Virus record (IMG/VR): IMGVR_UViG_638154508_000001
Coordinates: 1 to 45,449 of that record
DNA: 45,449 nt
Direction: 5' to 3' (one strand)
Origin: a virus
The position numbers and the translations under genes were made by a program. Under the pieces are notes generated by a model, which worked only from the letters and a program-made list of their open reading frames with translations, did no database searches and was not told the origin of the DNA. Shown here in pieces: positions 25,890 through 37,820 of the stretch (its first letter is position 1; the number at the start of each line of letters is the position of its first letter).

Positions 25890-26215
25890 TTACTTGCTGC
25901 GGCGTCGATGATTTTCTTACCCAGGGTCTCTGCCTCGGCTGCAGTGAAGCCACCCTTAGAATACTGCTCAGCCGTATATACGATATCAGCAAGTTCTGCA
26001 AGCGAGATGTTTCCCTTTGCGGTATTGATCTCATTTTTCAGAGTTTCCAGCGATTCCTGAGCAATCTCAAGTTGAGCAGGCAGCTGCTCAAGTTCGGTAG
26101 AAAGGAGTTTGAATCCTTTGCGGCGGGCGTATAAGTAGAGTGTTGTTGCGAAAGCCCCTAGGCCTGCACCAAAAGCAAGTATATCTTCCAGTGAGAAAGA
26201 TTCGAAAATAGTCAT
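25886..26215 (-). CDS. N-terminally membrane-anchored coiled-coil protein
   Basis: ILAFGAGLGAFATTLYLY TM helix followed by a coiled coil. Confidence 0.65.
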   Translation of the reverse strand: MTIFESFSLEDILAFGAGLGAFATTLYLYARRKGFKLLSTELEQLPAQLEIAQESLETLKNEINTAKGNISLAELADIVYTAEQYSKGGFTAAEAETLGKKIIDAAASK

Positions 26216-28610: not shown

Positions 28611-30719
28611 TTATGCCACGAGTTTTACATGCTCCTTGCCCCACATCAGGACATCTCCCTTTGAGGTCATTTTTTTGAGAGTTGTTTCTATCCTCTCTTT
28701 TTTGATGCCATGCTGCTCTGCTTCGTTGAAAAGATCCTGGACAGGTACCTTACCTGCGGGATATTTCCTGCCGCGCTCCTGGAGGACCTCTCTTACCATC
28801 CTAATTACATCCCGCTGGCTCTTTGATGATCCACCATTGAGGACCGATGCATCGACCTCCCCGGATTGAGAGTCAATACCCACAGTCCGGAGACAGTTAA
28901 GCATCAGCCGAGTCGCACGTTTTGCGTCATCGAGTGTAACCCCTTGGCTTAACCTTACCCTTGCAGAGGCCTCGGCGAGCCGTACAGTGGCTTCTTCTTG
29001 CCGTGTGGTGATTGGTATCGATTTTATCTTACTTGACTGTCCCGTTTTCCTAAGGTCCAGGTAAAAATGGTGTATGTGGTCCCTGGCTTCTGTCGTCAGA
29101 ACAGGGAAGATATTCCTCCTTGCATAGGCGACGTGTTTCCGGAAAAGGTCCGGAGGGATCTCGGGTCTAACGTGTGTGGAAGCTTCAGCCAGTTCTTCAG
29201 TTGAGAAGGCGGAATCAGAGACCGTTTCACGCTGTTGCCGCATCTCCCCTGCGGTATGAGTGCCTAACACATGCTCCGATATTCTCGCATCTTCTACAGC
29301 GTTAGGGGTATCCAGCAAAACGAAGATGAGATCAAACCTGGATAGTAGAGAGGGCGGCATATTGATCTGTTCTGCAAGGCCCTCGTAAGTGTCAAATTTT
29401 CCGTACTTCGGGTTTGCGCTCATGAATACAGCAGTGCGGGTTTTCAGGGTTGCGATGATGCCGGCTTTGGCCAGGTTTATCTCCTGCTGCTCCATGGCCT
29501 CGTGTAAAGCATCTCTGTCACCCTGTCTCATCTTATCGGCTTCGTCGACGTAGGCAACGCCCTTGTCTGCCATCACAAGGGCACCGCCTTCAACCGCCCA
29601 CCTACCTTCTCCGAATTTTTCGTCTTTTGTGACGATGGCTGTCAGGCCTCCGGCAGTTGTAGCTTTTCTGCTTGTGAATACCGCCCTTGGGGACCTGGCC
29701 TGTGAAGACTTCATGAGTTTGGTTTTGCCTTTTGAGGGGTCCCCCACACAGAGCAGGTGGATGTCTCCCCTGAGGTATGAACCATCCGGAGCGTTTTTCG
29801 GAACGCCAGAGAAGAGCTGTAGGGCTGTGGCCTCTTTGACGTCATCCATGCCGTAGATAAGAGGAGCTATTGAAGAGATAACCTTATCATAGACTGCCGG
29901 GTCCCTAGCAAGAGTGAGGATCTTCTTCTCGTCTTCAGGCGTGATTTCAATCTCGTCAAAGGCAGTACCCATACGCTCGATGGAATTGACCTCGAGGAAT
30001 ATGTCATAGAAAGTTGATTTCCCATCCCTTATCGTCCTCTGCCTGCTCATGAGGATCCCTGTTAAGATCACTCTCTCTCCGGGTAATATTAAGCCCGTCA
30101 GATCCTCTTCAATTGAGATGTCCAAGTTCTGTGCCTGTGTGCCTCTAAGGTCCTCAGGGGGTTCTTGGACCTGCAGTTTCTGAGCATCTACAAAGATCGA
30201 GTCCTCGATCCTGACTTTGTATGGGCCTTTCTTCCCGCAGGTTTCGTTCTCACAGCCGGAGAAAGGTTCTTCAAACTTGAAAGAAGGCTGGTCCACGAAT
30301 GTAATGTGTTCACACCTTAAGCACTGGAAAGCCGCTTTTGTAATCCTTGGCCTGACTTCTGTTGCCTTCCTGACCATCCCTTCAATAGATATCAACTTTC
30401 CTAAGTGTTTGCTTCTGAGCTCTCCTATGGGAACCCTGGTGGGGACGTTCATAATCCTTACATGGGCATCTTTAAGGATTTTATCAACGGGGAGATCTAT
30501 TTCTTTTAGGTTTGTCTCGAATTCTGGAATTAGTTCTCCGGGGTTGTTAAGTAGATCACGGGCGAGGTATCTGTCGAATTTTTCGACGTTGATGAAGTTA
30601 ATATATAGAGATCGAGTATCCGGGTACATATTAGCGAGTTCAAGGATATCGGTCCAGCAGTAGTCTTTGAAAAACCTTTTTATCATCTGGGCGTGTTTAT
30701 TTTCGTTGTCTTTAGTCAA
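28611..30719 (-). CDS. mcm: MCM replicative helicase
   Basis: Zn finger CLRC..CENETC, Walker A GDPSKGKT, Walker B YVDEADKM, Arg finger SRFD, and a C-terminal winged helix. Confidence 0.97.
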   Translation of the reverse strand: MTKDNENKHAQMIKRFFKDYCWTDILELANMYPDTRSLYINFINVEKFDRYLARDLLNNPGELIPEFETNLKEIDLPVDKILKDAHVRIMNVPTRVPIGELRSKHLGKLISIEGMVRKATEVRPRITKAAFQCLRCEHITFVDQPSFKFEEPFSGCENETCGKKGPYKVRIEDSIFVDAQKLQVQEPPEDLRGTQAQNLDISIEEDLTGLILPGERVILTGILMSRQRTIRDGKSTFYDIFLEVNSIERMGTAFDEIEITPEDEKKILTLARDPAVYDKVISSIAPLIYGMDDVKEATALQLFSGVPKNAPDGSYLRGDIHLLCVGDPSKGKTKLMKSSQARSPRAVFTSRKATTAGGLTAIVTKDEKFGEGRWAVEGGALVMADKGVAYVDEADKMRQGDRDALHEAMEQQEINLAKAGIIATLKTRTAVFMSANPKYGKFDTYEGLAEQINMPPSLLSRFDLIFVLLDTPNAVEDARISEHVLGTHTAGEMRQQRETVSDSAFSTEELAEASTHVRPEIPPDLFRKHVAYARRNIFPVLTTEARDHIHHFYLDLRKTGQSSKIKSIPITTRQEEATVRLAEASARVRLSQGVTLDDAKRATRLMLNCLRTVGIDSQSGEVDASVLNGGSSKSQRDVIRMVREVLQERGRKYPAGKVPVQDLFNEAEQHGIKKERIETTLKKMTSKGDVLMWGKEHVKLVA

Positions 30720-34413: not shown

Positions 34414-34746
34414 TTACAATCCATTCAGGGGATGTACTACACACGGCAGAGTGTGTGGATTCCCATACTCAATTGAAGTGATGTCGTCCCATCCCCGCAA
34501 GTTTGCGACGATGGCCAGTAAAACCGGAACGTATGTGGATCCGAAGATACACAAAGCGACCGATTCCTGTCCGGTTGTCTTTTTTGCAGTTGCTATTTTC
34601 TTGGCAATATGCTCCAATATTGCAGGAACATGGTCCAGTGTATACTCCTTCCGGACCTGTTTTCCAATGTACACATTCCCAACATCAGCCGGGACGTCCT
34701 CCCGGAGATCAAATCTTACCGTCACATTTTTCGTCACGCAACTCAC
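34414..34746 (-). CDS. Small alpha/beta hypothetical protein
   Basis: 110-aa ORF in the early operon. Confidence 0.6.
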   Translation of the reverse strand: MSCVTKNVTVRFDLREDVPADVGNVYIGKQVRKEYTLDHVPAILEHIAKKIATAKKTTGQESVALCIFGSTYVPVLLAIVANLRGWDDITSIEYGNPHTLPCVVHPLNGL

Positions 34747-35053
34747 CGCTGGTCATACTGTTCACGACAACACTCCTGACGACTATTTTCAGCGCCCGGG
34801 TTGCCTTCTGTCTTTCAAGATTGTGAAGTACACCGGCTGCTACCTGGCGCCCGTAGAAAACCTCAGAAGACTTGCTTTCACACGACAACTGTTCGATTCC
34901 ATTCCCGCGTGCTTTTTCAATTTTCTCGTAGAGGTCTTTAGGCATCCGGAAGGTGCCAGTTATCATGTTTTCTTCATCGATCCAGCTACATTCTGCGCAG
35001 TCGCAGTCCGACTGCTCGTTGTTTCTACTTTCCGATGTTTTATTCTCTATCAC
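34709..35053 (-). CDS. Hypothetical early protein with an RHH-like GTFRMPKDLYEKIE segment
   Basis: A beta-strand/helix pattern typical of ribbon-helix-helix proteins. Confidence 0.5.
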   Translation of the reverse strand: MIENKTSESRNNEQSDCDCAECSWIDEENMITGTFRMPKDLYEKIEKARGNGIEQLSCESKSSEVFYGRQVAAGVLHNLERQKATRALKIVVRSVVVNSMTSGELRDEKCDGKI

Positions 35054-35089
35054 AACTTCACTTCCAAATTTTTTAGTGTATTAACCCCG

Positions 35090-35164
35090 TTGCCCTGCCC
35101 GGATTTGAACCGGGGTTTCTTGATCCAAAGTCAAGAGTGATTGGCCTGGCTACACTACAGGGCT
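35090..35164 (-). tRNA. trnQ: tRNA-Gln(UUG), virus-encoded, with no encoded CCA and an A1:A72 mismatch
   Basis: AGCCCTG acceptor / CAGGGCA; D arm; CTTGA-CT TTG GA-TCAAG anticodon arm; CCCGG-TTCAAAT-CCGGG T arm. Confidence 0.9.
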
Positions 35165-35171
35165 ACACGTG

Positions 35172-35198
35172 CCCCGTCCCGGTTATCCCGGGACGGGG
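35172..35198. other. Perfect 11-bp GC hairpin just 5' of tRNA-Gln
   Basis: CCCCGTCCCGG-TTATC-CCGGGACGGGG. Confidence 0.8.
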
Positions 35199-35342
35199 GT
35201 AGACTATGGTTTACAGTGGTCCGTTTTTCCGTTTATCAACTGACCCCTGAAACCGCCCGTGGGGCCAGCAGGTTTAAACTTATTTATGCTGTTGTCTCAT
35301 CCAGAATTTTTTTTGTTTTTTATTGTGTCCGGGTGGTCCCGG

Positions 35343-35412
35343 ATGCCGTATTCAGGAATCGAACCTGAAAGATCATCGAGGGGAGACAGGATCTTACGTC
35401 CAGTTACGGCAC
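35343..35412 (-). ncRNA. tRNA-like element A (acceptor stem and T arm; no canonical D or anticodon arm)
   Basis: GTGCCGTA/TACGGCAT stem; TCAGG-TTCGATT-CCTGA T arm; AAGATC/GATCTT stem with a 15-nt loop. Confidence 0.65.
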
Positions 35413-35459
35413 GTGGTTCACCCAGGCAGGGAAGCCGGGGGTATGTTCATCAGGATTTG

Positions 35460-35551
35460 TGCCGGTGCCCAGGCTTGAACTGGGGTGTGTGGGTGGTGGA
35501 ATCGAGGTATGATACAGGATCTGAGAAAAGAGTCCTCCCCCGGTCACCGGC
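35460..35551 (-). ncRNA. tRNA-like element B (92 nt)
   Basis: Perfect 7-bp GCCGGTG/CACCGGC plus discriminator A; CCCAG-TTCAAGC-CTGGG T arm; ~60-nt non-cloverleaf interior. Confidence 0.7.
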
Positions 35552-35686
35552 ATGATGTTTTGTTCTGACACTTGTTTCCTGTGAATTGAAATATTTGAAA
35601 ATCCAACTTTTTTCTATTACCAACGAAATACTGCTGGGGTTATTTTTCTGGGGAGGAGTTCTAACTCTGGCAGCTTGTGTCACCAA

Positions 35687-35899
35687 CTATGGGATGTTGC
35701 CGGGAGTATGTTGTGGGGGGATTACTTTCCGGCAGTCCTGTACCGCGTTTTTTTCTGATTCTGACACCCAGAGCTTGGCCATTGTGATCGTGGTCACAGC
35801 ATACATCCTGCCCTGAGCTTTATATCCCTGGATCTCCGCTTCTGGGGTTGCTGCTAGGATCCTGAGGTTTTCCTCGGTCTCAGGATCGAACCGGATCAT
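35687..35899 (-). CDS. Hypothetical early protein
   Basis: 70 aa with a GAGGT RBS; ends in TAG. Confidence 0.5.
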   Translation of the reverse strand: MIRFDPETEENLRILAATPEAEIQGYKAQGRMYAVTTITMAKLWVSESEKNAVQDCRKVIPPQHTPGNIP

Positions 35900-35902
35900 A
35901 CC

Positions 35903-36109
35903 TCAGATCCCCCCGTAGATCCGGACTGAACTCGTCCTGGTACGTGTCCCATTTTCCGTGAGTTTTTCACTTACTCCAGTTCCTATATCCTGTACTGTGA
36001 TGCCGTACTCATCCTCAAACTCGGTGATGATTGACATGATATCTTTCTCAAGCCTGCGCATGGCCTGTTTTGCCTCAGTTACGGTATGGATATCCGGACC
36101 CTGTGTCAT
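35903..36109 (-). CDS. Hypothetical early protein
   Basis: 68 aa; ATGA-coupled. Confidence 0.6.
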   Translation of the reverse strand: MTQGPDIHTVTEAKQAMRRLEKDIMSIITEFEDEYGITVQDIGTGVSEKLTENGTRTRTSSVRIYGGI

Positions 36110-36396
36110 GTGGATGCAGCCTCCTCCTTTCCAAGCAGCTTGTCAACGTGAGTGTCGTAATTCTCCTGCTGCTGTTGCGGGGTCATTGCCCTGTACTCAG
36201 TTCCAAACTTCGCAACAATGGTTCCATCCGGCTCCTGCTTCACAGGAATATTCTCCCTTGCCAGGCTGGCCAGCAGGCCTGCTCTCCACTGCCAGAAGTC
36301 GGAGAGGTAAGCAACTCTGTGCGTCCTGGACTTTCCCCAGCTGGAGTTGCCTGAACTCCCTGACTCAAAGCCGGCACGTTTTGCTGACCAGCTCAT
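36106..36396 (-). CDS. Hypothetical early protein
   Basis: 96 aa; ATGA-coupled. Confidence 0.6.
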   Translation of the reverse strand: MSWSAKRAGFESGSSGNSSWGKSRTHRVAYLSDFWQWRAGLLASLARENIPVKQEPDGTIVAKFGTEYRAMTPQQQQENYDTHVDKLLGKEEAAST

Positions 36397-36566
36397 TGCC
36401 CTACCTCCGCCAGGTGATCGGGATGCTCTGTCCCGGAGCTGTCAAGGATCGCGTTGATTTCGTGGATCAACACCTGGACCTCGGAATCAGGAGGGCTGAG
36501 TTTCGAGATCCTGTCGAGCCTTTCCTGGACTGGGAATACGATCTCGTCGTTGTACCAGTTCGACAT
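36393..36566 (-). CDS. 57-aa ORF missing from the ORF track (MSNWYNDEIVFPVQERLDRISKLSPPDSEVQVLIHEINAILDSSGTEHPDHLAEVGQ)
   Basis: Translated by hand; coupled on both sides. Confidence 0.55.
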   Translation of the reverse strand: MSNWYNDEIVFPVQERLDRISKLSPPDSEVQVLIHEINAILDSSGTEHPDHLAEVGQ

Positions 36567-36763
36567 CACTCTCCCTCCGGAAAATCCTCATACTCAATTT
36601 CACCGAATTCCACTTCACATGGTCCCTCCCACAAAGGGCAGGTCTCAAAACATTTTCTCGCAGCACATGGTTTATCGTCGTCTATTTCGTTGTATAGTTT
36701 CCTCTGGTCCTCGCATACGTATGCATTTATTATGTCAAAGGCTGTAATTTCCATAGTCATCAA
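36566..36763 (-). CDS. Small Cys-rich acidic protein
   Basis: CAARKCFETCPLWEGPC; coupled to neighbours. Confidence 0.55.
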   Translation of the reverse strand: MMTMEITAFDIINAYVCEDQRKLYNEIDDDKPCAARKCFETCPLWEGPCEVEFGEIEYEDFPEGE

Positions 36764-36933
36764 GCCTCCTGCTTCTCACGAGGGCATTCAGAAAAGTTTC
36801 CAGGGATACGATATTCTCCCGAGGGGTGTTTGGTTAGCTGGCAAACTCTTCTCCTGCGGCCATACTGCACTACCTCGATCAGGTCACTGCATCCCCTCGC
36901 TTCGCAGTTTTTGACTGATGGTTTGAAGGTCAT
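36760..36933 (-). CDS. 57-aa Cys4 microprotein missing from the ORF track; paralog of the repeats in 1214-1519
   Basis: MTFKPSVKNCEARGCSDLIEVVQYGRRRRVCQLTKHPSGEYRIPGNFSECPREKQEA. Confidence 0.65.
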   Translation of the reverse strand: MTFKPSVKNCEARGCSDLIEVVQYGRRRRVCQLTKHPSGEYRIPGNFSECPREKQEA

Positions 36934-37146
36934 TGCCCAGCCCCCCTGGGAGTGGAGTTATCCCCATCTGTGCTGCTGCTGGCAGGATTGTGTTTGCATG
37001 GAGAACGAAGTGCATCAAAATTACTGAAGTTTCGACAGCGTTAGAACGACTTGCAAATACTTTTTTATCAACCATTTCTTCGAGTGCACCATCAGCCAGC
37101 CTGAATATGAGAAGCTTGACGAAATTTTACTTTTCCTAACAACCAT
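36884..37146 (-). pseudogene. Probable RHH/CopG-like regulator, apparently frameshifted near 37120
   Basis: MVVRKSKIS (ATG at 37146) plus the -1 frame VKLLIFRLADGALEEMVDKKVFASRSNAVE resembles an RHH protein; the join is inferred. Confidence 0.4.
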
Positions 37147-37160
37147 TCTTTTTTACACCT

Positions 37161-37316
37161 TTACAATTTTTCAACTTCTATGTGATCGCCACAATAGACG
37201 TACTGGAATTTGTCTCCAGGTCTGAGCCCGAGCTTTTCCGCAACCTCATAGGGAAACGGGGCTGAGTTGTTTCTCCACAGTGTGCATCCTTTTCCGAGTA
37301 CGGTTTTTGATTTCAT
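37161..37316 (-). CDS. AbrB/SpoVT-like DNA-binding protein, 51 aa, missing from the ORF track
   Basis: MKSKTVLGKGCTLWRNNSAPFPYEVAEKLGLRPGDKFQYVYCGDHIEVEKL; P..VAEKLGL.PGD motif; first gene of the early operon. Confidence 0.75.
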   Translation of the reverse strand: MKSKTVLGKGCTLWRNNSAPFPYEVAEKLGLRPGDKFQYVYCGDHIEVEKL

Positions 37317-37347
37317 GTTCTTCCTCAATGTCGCAATAATAATGTTC

Positions 37348-37411
37348 CTATTGCAATATACCTATTATCTCATAAACGTATAAATAGTTATCTACAATAC
37401 TATTGCAATAT
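37348..37411. promoter_or_regulatory. Divergent switch region with two CTATTGCAATAT operator-like sites
   Basis: Palindrome TATTGCAATA at 37349-37358 and 37401-37410 (overlapping the repressor ATG); a half-site GCAATA lies near 37333. Confidence 0.65.
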
Positions 37412-37820
37412 GGCAAAGATAGAAAGACGAAAAGTCGCTCTGAATACTACAGTATCTCCACGATTAGGGAAGCAGGTTGATGACCTCGCTGGAACTGGAG
37501 AGTTTTCTAGCCAGAGCGACATTGTTTCTTTCGCACTTACTCAGTTTTTTGTTCGTGAAGAACAGCGAGAAAAAGAAAAGAAAATGGCAGAACTCTATTC
37601 TATCCTAATCCAGCATAAGGAAGGCAGGGAGCTCTTAGAGGAAGTTCCACGAACTCCAAAAGAAAGAGCTGAGGCATTTACAAAAGCAGGCATCGCGTTG
37701 GTTGAAGCCGGAGAATATGAAGAGGCAAAGAAATATTTCGCAAAAGCTAAGGAACTCGAAGACTCTAATTCTAATTCTAAATCTGACGAAGATTATCCAC
37801 GTGAGTATATATTAGAATGA
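37410..37820 (+). CDS. Putative repressor: N-terminal RHH plus a TPR-like helix pair
   Basis: KVALNTTVSPRLGKQVDDLAGTGEFSSQSDIVSFAL; AFTKAGIALVEAGEYEEAKKYFAKA. Confidence 0.75.
   Translation: MAKIERRKVALNTTVSPRLGKQVDDLAGTGEFSSQSDIVSFALTQFFVREEQREKEKKMAELYSILIQHKEGRELLEEVPRTPKERAEAFTKAGIALVEAGEYEEAKKYFAKAKELEDSNSNSKSDEDYPREYILE

Follow-up and report, generated by a model that had tools for sequence, protein, structure and literature searches.

In the early operon of a Methanosarcina provirus, two small tRNA-like elements, B and A, stand in front of a complete tRNA-Gln(UUG) gene, and both keep the top half of a transfer RNA (tRNA), i.e. the acceptor stem and the T arm, without an anticodon arm. 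The window, by which we mean the whole stretch of DNA analysed (45,449 nucleotides (nt), IMG/VR record IMGVR_UViG_638154508_000001), corresponds to G000:C1:4680788-4726236 in a Methanosarcina genome that consists of one contig (5,751,492 bp); nearly the whole of a tailed provirus lies inside it, and its gene direction is that of the minus strand. By analogy with known systems, B and A are proposed to be t-element-like signals at which RNase P and tRNase Z would process the early transcript, a proposal that could equally well prove right or wrong. The three units of the array are:

35460..35551, minus strand: element B, a tRNA-like RNA of 92 nt (sequence, strict pattern scan, covariance models, pairing statistics, minimum free energy (MFE) folding)
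35344..35410, minus strand: element A, the shorter tRNA-like element, with a 35-nt interior (sequence, one-mismatch scan, two homologues)
35089..35164, minus strand: tRNA-Gln(UUG), a complete cloverleaf (ARAGORN; Rfam RF00005, 54.4 bits at 35090-35164)

The acceptor stem of B, GCCGGTG/CACCGGC, consists of seven perfect pairs, the discriminator is A, and the T arm, CCCAG-TTCAAGC-CTGGG, has a 5-bp stem. The 60-nt interior comprises no anticodon arm; a hairpin at the position of the D arm is followed by a G-poor, C/A-rich linker. B thereby displays the structure of a t-element, in which the acceptor stem stacks on a T arm whose loop is of the tRNA type, and the anticodon arm is missing. The acceptor stem of A, in the tRNA register GCCGTAA/ATACGGC, is formed by six pairs and an A.A mismatch at pair 7, its discriminator is A, and its T arm, TCAGG-TTCGATT-CCTGA, again has a 5-bp stem. 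An earlier, sequence-only reading of the window had recognised here a genuine tRNA-Gln(UUG) and two units reduced to the top half, and its account of the acceptor stem, discriminator, T arm and 60-nt interior of B agrees with ours; ARAGORN and Rfam confirm the tRNA-Gln, and A and B do carry the acceptor stem, the discriminator and the T arm. Its description of the B interior as non-cloverleaf stands as regards the missing anticodon arm, but the interior is not wholly unstructured, most members of the B family having a hairpin that starts at nt 10, where the D stem of a tRNA starts. Likewise, the TTCGATT T arm ascribed to A is there, but the 8-bp acceptor stem belongs to another register, with a G.U pair.

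Neither element is recognised as a canonical tRNA, and this reading is rejected for both. ARAGORN (standard, intron and mitochondrial modes, normal thresholds) makes no call for A or B, and Rfam at E<=10 gives no match for B and only non-significant ones for A, namely a 16-bit tRNA-Sec (E=5) and a 19-bit Plastid-ycf2 on the opposite strand (E 0.6), while tRNA-Gln passes. Intron-bearing tRNAs are rejected as well, as none of the single internal deletions of 6-59 nt introduced into eight B elements gave a tRNA in ARAGORN. A strict scan of both strands of the whole genome for a 7-bp acceptor stem, a 5-bp T stem and a TTCRANN loop returned 57 sites, of which 50 are tRNAs; B is the only GC-rich one among the seven others. 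When one acceptor mismatch was allowed, 109 non-tRNA sites (15 of them GC-rich) were found in 11.5 Mb, both strands included, and therefore the presence of two such sites, A and B, on the same strand, 50 nt apart and beside a real tRNA is far beyond chance.

B is a member of a family that comprises at least 12 elements, from Methanosarcinaceae genomes (three other Methanosarcina genomes and two other genera) and three metagenome contigs. The first two relatives were found by a DNA search of 59 Methanosarcina genomes. Our own covariance model of the top half (R1) matched G007, G050, G026 (two full copies and a truncated one) and the three metagenome contigs, and a second model (R2) matched copies in the two other genera; no Rfam family matches the latter, and the B family is absent from Rfam 15. 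In G180 and G179, which have long forms, a tRNA-Thr(GGU) gene is found at a distance of about 4 kb from the element. Short forms of 72 nt (G196, L173:8330-8562) and 69 nt (G202, L174:8170-8397) are located in host chromosomes, outside any provirus, upstream of a larB-like operon and an aIF2-gamma operon, respectively. Each short form is followed by a conserved hairpin with an 11-bp stem, TGCATGGTGGG...CCCACCATGCA, and a module of about 165 nt is common to the two loci, with unrelated flanks.

The stems of B are maintained through compensatory changes. In the alignment of eight sequences, pairing is kept in 98.9% of stem cells and three pairs have changed on both sides; the covariation score is reached by one of 500 shuffles, while in slid controls, with the partner moved by 1-3 columns, pairing is 21-46%. 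With 12 sequences 140 of 144 stem cells pair, and changes on both sides are found at acceptor pair 5 (G-C / U-A), acceptor pair 6 (U-A / C-G, with a U.G intermediate), T-stem pair 1 (C-G / U-A, with a C.A intermediate), and T-stem pair 3 (C-G / A-U). The TTCRANN T loop is kept in 10 of the 12 members, and the 32-nt top half has a mean identity of 83%; the interior ranges from 37 to 81 nt, with length differences that are not multiples of three, and is unalignable between sub-groups. Paired stems beside a drifting interior give solid support for selection acting on the tRNA top half alone, which falls short of proof because the sequences are few and related. The sequence-only reading had suggested selection for shape rather than decoding, with the top half kept and the anticodon half gone, and this has held up, the homologues being anticodon-less in the same place. 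Among the outcomes that it had named as speaking against it are simple decay of ordinary tRNAs and the lack of covariation. Neither is found, because the homologues keep anticodon-less elements, with no intact tRNA at the position of B in any related locus, and the stems pair through compensatory changes.

B is intergenic and co-oriented in all the loci examined. Five loci have sufficient flanking sequence for a comparison of position, namely those of the window, G007, G050, L056 and the second locus of G026; in all of them the homologue of the open reading frame (ORF) 36106-36396 precedes B by about 190-560 nt, with B on the operon strand, and the anticodon-less layout is common to proviruses whose proteins are only 35-65% identical. 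The homologue of ORF 34709-35053, coding for a Cys-rich protein, comes directly after B in G007 and L056, and in the window it comes after tRNA-Gln; for this reason tRNA-type units can be said to behave as interchangeable spacers between gene blocks.

A has two relatives, one in G007 (L047:8811-8865) and the other on a metagenome contig (L066:6088-6152). Among the three elements, covariation is seen at acceptor pairs 5 and 6 and at T-stem pair 1. The window and G007 are 80% identical from the T arm of A to about 60 nt downstream, the neighbouring proteins being identical in about 35-55%. This segment includes a further structure:

35328..35343, minus strand: hairpin TCCGGG-ACCA-CCCGGA directly after the discriminator of A, with an equivalent (TCCGG...CCGGA) in 3/3 A-type elements

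In IMG/VR, scans with two B patterns gave no matches, and one A pattern matched only the G007 provirus record, which ends just before B. The first pattern used on metagenomes was too loose, with more than 120 matches and three true relatives among the 80 loci listed. Weak R1 matches of about 99 nt in several genomes were discarded as a conserved coding region, and a weak top-half match at 26094-26171, located within a coding ORF, as a chance one.

The hairpin at nt 10 is exemplified by CAGG...CCUG and by CAGA-CGCGGAC-UCUG in G050, and its purine-rich loop is GGAGGAC. In several members the purine-rich 5' part of the interior can pair with its C-rich 3' part (GGGGAG/CUCCCC, CGCGGA/UCCGCG, AACGC/GCGUU). 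The tRNA-like fold is the MFE structure in five of eight B elements, among them the B of the window, and lies within 3 kcal/mol of it in the other three.

The acceptor/T-arm stack is the part of a tRNA that is read by RNase P, tRNase Z, and the CCA-adding enzyme. B and A copy this part within the leftward early transcript, between a block of small early ORFs on one side and the replication genes on the other. Host RNase P would cut their 5' ends and tRNase Z would cut after the discriminator, the same enzymes having to process the neighbouring tRNA-Gln in any case. The long early RNA would in this way fall into pieces, the small-ORF block being set apart from the replication genes, and small tRNA-shaped RNAs would perhaps be released too. 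The cleavage, and any effect it may have on expression, is postulated here from the known systems discussed below.

The sequence-only reading had proposed three roles for the units: decoys against tRNA-targeting host defences, processing signals, and decoy integration targets. The processing signal is the best fit among them, and it has an archaeal precedent in the t-elements of Haloferax. PMC4326828 describes the t-element of Haloferax volcanii as a tRNA-like structure upstream of 5S ribosomal RNA (rRNA) (Hoelzle et al. 2008, 2012, cited therein), and Haloferax t-elements as being cut by RNase P and tRNase Z in vivo. On that description they share with B and A their archaeal origin and an anticodon-less tRNA-like fold inside a longer transcript. 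They differ in belonging to the host rRNA operon, whereas B and A are viral, form a sequence family of their own and would be cleaved by analogy; moreover, the top half of B is of the tRNA-Ser type, and B carries a long insert, rich in C and A, of 37-81 nt. Plant mitochondrial t-elements, which according to PMC1920247 lie between cistrons and set the 5' and 3' ends of messenger RNAs (mRNAs) via tRNA-processing enzymes, are likewise mimics of the acceptor stem plus T arm, but they are organellar, come from another domain of life and have no sequence relationship to B or A. A search of the literature library found no published t-elements in archaeal viruses.

The CI RNA of phage P4 and the C4 antisense RNA of P1/P7 are immunity RNAs cut from early transcripts by RNase P. 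Like B, they are small structured RNAs embedded in an early or immunity transcript of a temperate virus, with a tRNA-processing enzyme as the presumed agent of their release; they act, however, by pairing to repeated targets in their own transcript, and no target above chance was found for B. The tRNA-like domain of transfer-messenger RNA (tmRNA), too, combines an acceptor stem and a T arm with other RNA in place of the anticodon arm, while B is devoid of G3.U70, a tag reading frame, and pseudoknots. Archaea are not known to possess tmRNA, and B was rejected as a tmRNA: pair 3 is C-G in all members, the ARAGORN tmRNA search was negative, and the linker has no conserved stop codon.

The genes between which the array is located, and those that define the provirus, are as follows:

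1-1173: tyrosine integrase (PF00589)
28611-30719: MCM helicase
34709..35053, minus strand: first ORF past the array, coding for the 114-aa Cys-rich protein mentioned above
35687-37328: block of small early ORFs
35687..35899, minus strand: last small ORF of the early block, 70 aa, upstream of B (early-block synteny)

The stretch is represented in 17 public RNA sequencing runs. In two studies, RNA sequencing contigs (Logan) break off in adapter sequence at 37335/37342 and resume at 37411/37416, which are probably divergent early transcription starts. At 37335..37342 (minus strand) the leftward early transcript, which would pass through B, A, and tRNA-Gln, is likely to begin, the adapter ends being a weak hint to that effect. 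From about 37335 the contigs continue unbroken across B, A, and tRNA-Gln, as far as about 32.9 kb in one study and 31.9 kb in the other, a weak hint that the array is transcribed within the early RNA in ordinary cultures; that they are unbroken at B and A carries no information on processing. It is worth adding that the rightward start at 37411-37416 falls at the ATG of ORF 37410-37820, and the mRNA would then be leaderless.

Several points weigh against B and A being processing signals. A is imperfect, pair 7 being mismatched in two of the three members of its type and pair 4 in the third. The family consensus calculated by RNAalifold for B is a long hairpin in which the 5' interior is paired with the 3' strand of the T arm, and this fold is the MFE structure in three of eight members (G007, G050, G026_B2). 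A run of pyrimidines or of T (in most members 4-7 T) occurs in every B, and archaeal RNA polymerase could terminate there before the T arm is reached. AT-rich TATA-like sequence is present upstream of several B members, and some of them may be separate small genes and not punctuation in a long RNA. The proposed cleavage presupposes that the archaeal RNase P holoenzyme accepts a substrate without the normal D/anticodon body, and the RNA data are assembled contigs, which cannot show cuts or prove a single transcript.

The same structural evidence (pairing and covariation) fits with B and A being stable tRNA-shaped RNAs that act in trans, either released from the early transcript or made from their own promoters. 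As small RNAs or decoys they would engage host factors that read the top half of a tRNA, such as acceptor-end defence nucleases or toxins, the CCA-adding enzyme, synthetases or EF1A, or mRNAs via the C/A-rich loop. The AT-rich promoter-like sequence, which lies 15-50 nt upstream of several members, including the two host-chromosomal copies, agrees with this explanation, and so does the C-rich 3' interior, which resembles an anti-Shine-Dalgarno sequence: in B, ATCATACCTC (35507-35516) is the exact complement of GAGGTATGAT (35895-35904), comprising the Shine-Dalgarno sequence and the start codon of ORF 35687-35899. A 10-nt match of this kind, however, is expected by chance in about half of shuffles, and the search for antisense targets of B within 3 kb and in the whole early transcript gave nothing above shuffled controls, complements of 9-10-mers occurring in 40-65% of shuffles and the duplex energies lying inside the shuffled range. 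Furthermore, none of the neighbouring proteins was identified as a tRNA-directed enzyme or as the product of a known defence gene. Serylation is also unlikely: G73 and the variable arm are features of tRNA-Ser by which SerRS identifies it, and B has A or U as the discriminator and no variable arm. On balance, a role in trans is on the unlikely side. No more probable is its wider version, in which tailed proviruses of Methanosarcinaceae, with stray host copies, would encode undescribed anticodon-less RNAs derived from tRNA-Ser, excised in the manner of a tRNA, provided with CCA, and acting in trans as decoys or sponges for readers of the acceptor/T-arm elbow or as riboregulators via the C-rich anti-Shine-Dalgarno-like loop.

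That the elements are viral tRNA pseudogenes in neutral decay, with no present function, is unlikely. The near identity of the acceptor stem and T arm of B to those of archaeal tRNA-Ser (L066_B and L178 share all but the discriminator), the intact tRNA-Gln in the array, a T-loop-like TCGATTCC within the B interior, and the defects (two mismatches in G179, one in G180, and the mismatched pair 7 of the A type) are what such decay might leave; but it would strike stems and interior alike, and the stems have remained paired through compensatory changes while the interior has become unalignable. Neither the absence of intact tRNAs from related loci nor the sharing of the layout by such divergent proviruses fits with it. 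It is quite improbable that B is a fold switch, toggling between the tRNA-like fold and the long hairpin and so controlling read-through at the internal pyrimidine or T run into the replication genes. The consensus hairpin has 17 pairs, four of them covarying, and the three members with it as the MFE structure all have T runs of 6-7; on the other hand, the T-stem change to CCAAG/CTTGG in G007 keeps the T arm and breaks the alternative pair, L056, as read from its sequence, does not have the alternative helix, L066, G026_B1, and G180 have no run of four or more T, and the RNA contigs pass through B. A function of the array at the DNA level, as a site of recombination, a module boundary or an attachment (att) site derived from tRNA sequence, is very unlikely, even though rearrangement breakpoints lie in or beside B at three loci: the truncated G026 copy ends inside B, a 28-bp tRNA-Leu att repeat comes 66 nt after G026_B2, and homology breaks about 12 nt after the G180 copy. 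The gene order around B and A, too, differs between the window and G007. The provirus is nevertheless bounded by a 17-bp non-tRNA repeat beside the integrase, about 35 kb from the array, and the related G026 provirus sits at a tRNA-Ser of sequence unlike B; of a tRNA, only the 3' part would be left in an att scar, and not a covarying 5' acceptor strand, and there is no reason to keep the T-loop consensus at the level of DNA. For the same reasons, i.e. the non-tRNA repeat at the provirus ends and the presence of both, covarying, acceptor strands, an att scar or integration target is rejected, and the decoy integration target of the sequence-only reading is not supported. The host tRNAs show no match to A or B beyond T-loop similarity.

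A coding function of the 55-aa ORF 35404-35571, which overlaps B, was rejected too: the length differences among homologues do not preserve a frame, and there is no conserved ORF.

Returning to B as a putative tRNA-like processing signal, its probable ancestor can be named. The B top-half pattern, run over one genome per prokaryote species, matched mostly archaeal tRNA-Ser genes (and gave no new family members beyond G026 and G050), for which reason B most likely stems from a tRNA-Ser-type gene after an ancient loss of the anticodon and variable arms. The tRNA-Ser(UGA) of L178 and the B element of L066 share GCCGTCG ... CCCAG-TTCAAAT-CTGGG-CGACGGC and differ only at the discriminator, so that the acceptor stem (GCCGTCG/CGACGGC) and T arm of a canonical archaeal class II tRNA-Ser recur nearly base for base. 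In contrast to tRNA-Ser, B has neither the anticodon arm nor the variable-arm hairpin, and its discriminator is A or U, not G. The four tRNA-Ser genes of the host have acceptor stems other than that of B. As a separate observation, many tRNA-Ser genes of Methanosarcinales and of DPANN metagenome-assembled genomes (L187, L201, L203, L205, and others) measure 97-109 nt and escape ARAGORN unless its intron mode is used; they seem to contain introns of 12-25 nt.

The remaining features of the array lie around tRNA-Gln and in the spacers:

35172..35198: perfect 11-bp GC-rich hairpin just upstream of tRNA-Gln (inverted repeat I3)
35240..35268, minus strand: 8-bp hairpin CTGGCCCC/GGGGTCAG with one G.U pair, in the spacer between A and tRNA-Gln (read from sequence)
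35273..35290, minus strand: AT-rich ATAAATAAGTTTAAAC, between A and tRNA-Gln (sequence only)
35410..35415: CACGTG at the 5' edge of A; a second copy, 35166-35171, at the 5' edge of tRNA-Gln

Both GC hairpins and the CACGTG motif at the two 5' edges had been described earlier and are as described. CACGTG occurs three times in the 45-kb window, two of the copies abutting A and tRNA-Gln, and it is absent from the A homologues examined. ATAAATAAGTTTAAAC is a possible archaeal TATA box/B recognition element of a second promoter between A and tRNA-Gln; G007 has a similar AAATAAATTAAGCC at the equivalent position. Over 18 nt, the spacer between B and A (35422-35439) and the 3' end of tRNA-Gln (35085-35102) show 78% complementarity, and the spacer may be another tRNA-derived remnant. 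An Rfam match to c4-a1b1 at 35156-35207 scores 17 bits against a threshold of 46.7 bits. The first pair of the viral tRNA-Gln(UUG) is an A1.A72 mismatch, whereas both host tRNA-Gln genes have A1-U72. Codon supply was rejected as the reason for the viral tRNA-Gln, the share of CAA among Gln codons being 25.5% in the provirus and 23.8% in the host.

Besides the integrase and MCM, the provirus encodes tail and head genes. None of the 20 neighbouring proteins was recognised (Pfam and PHROGs) as an RNA-processing or tRNA-related enzyme. A 17-bp direct repeat, AGTTTCCAGTTAACAAT, brackets the provirus at G000:C1:4680690-4680706 and 4726804-4726820, i.e. 82-98 bp to the left of the window and 568 bp to its right. 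The repeat is surrounded by the inverted flanks GGTCTGAC/GTCAGACC, and the integrase begins about 80 bp after the left copy; the repeat is likely the att core of an element of about 46 kb inserted elsewhere than in a tRNA gene.

Two copies of a 480-bp stretch of the early operon, about 95% identical, are present in G026:C3 (L044:7020-7498 and L044:14569-15085), and the upstream one stops inside B, after its first 63 nt, beside insertion sequence fragments. The same contig has a 28-bp direct repeat (L046:9337-9364 and L046:13590-13617) identical to the 3' end of tRNA-Leu(CAA). It brackets a 4.2-kb remnant in which just some early genes are left, together with a B element 66 nt away from the repeat; immediately outside there is another integrase gene, the second.

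To our knowledge, hardly anything is known of how archaeal viruses split long early transcripts into separate RNAs. If B and A are indeed cut as proposed, archaeal viruses would borrow the tRNA-maturation enzymes of the host, as mitochondria and the Haloferax rRNA operon do. The B family would add a new RNA family to Rfam, and B itself would clearly exemplify the conversion of a tRNA gene into an RNA that does not decode.

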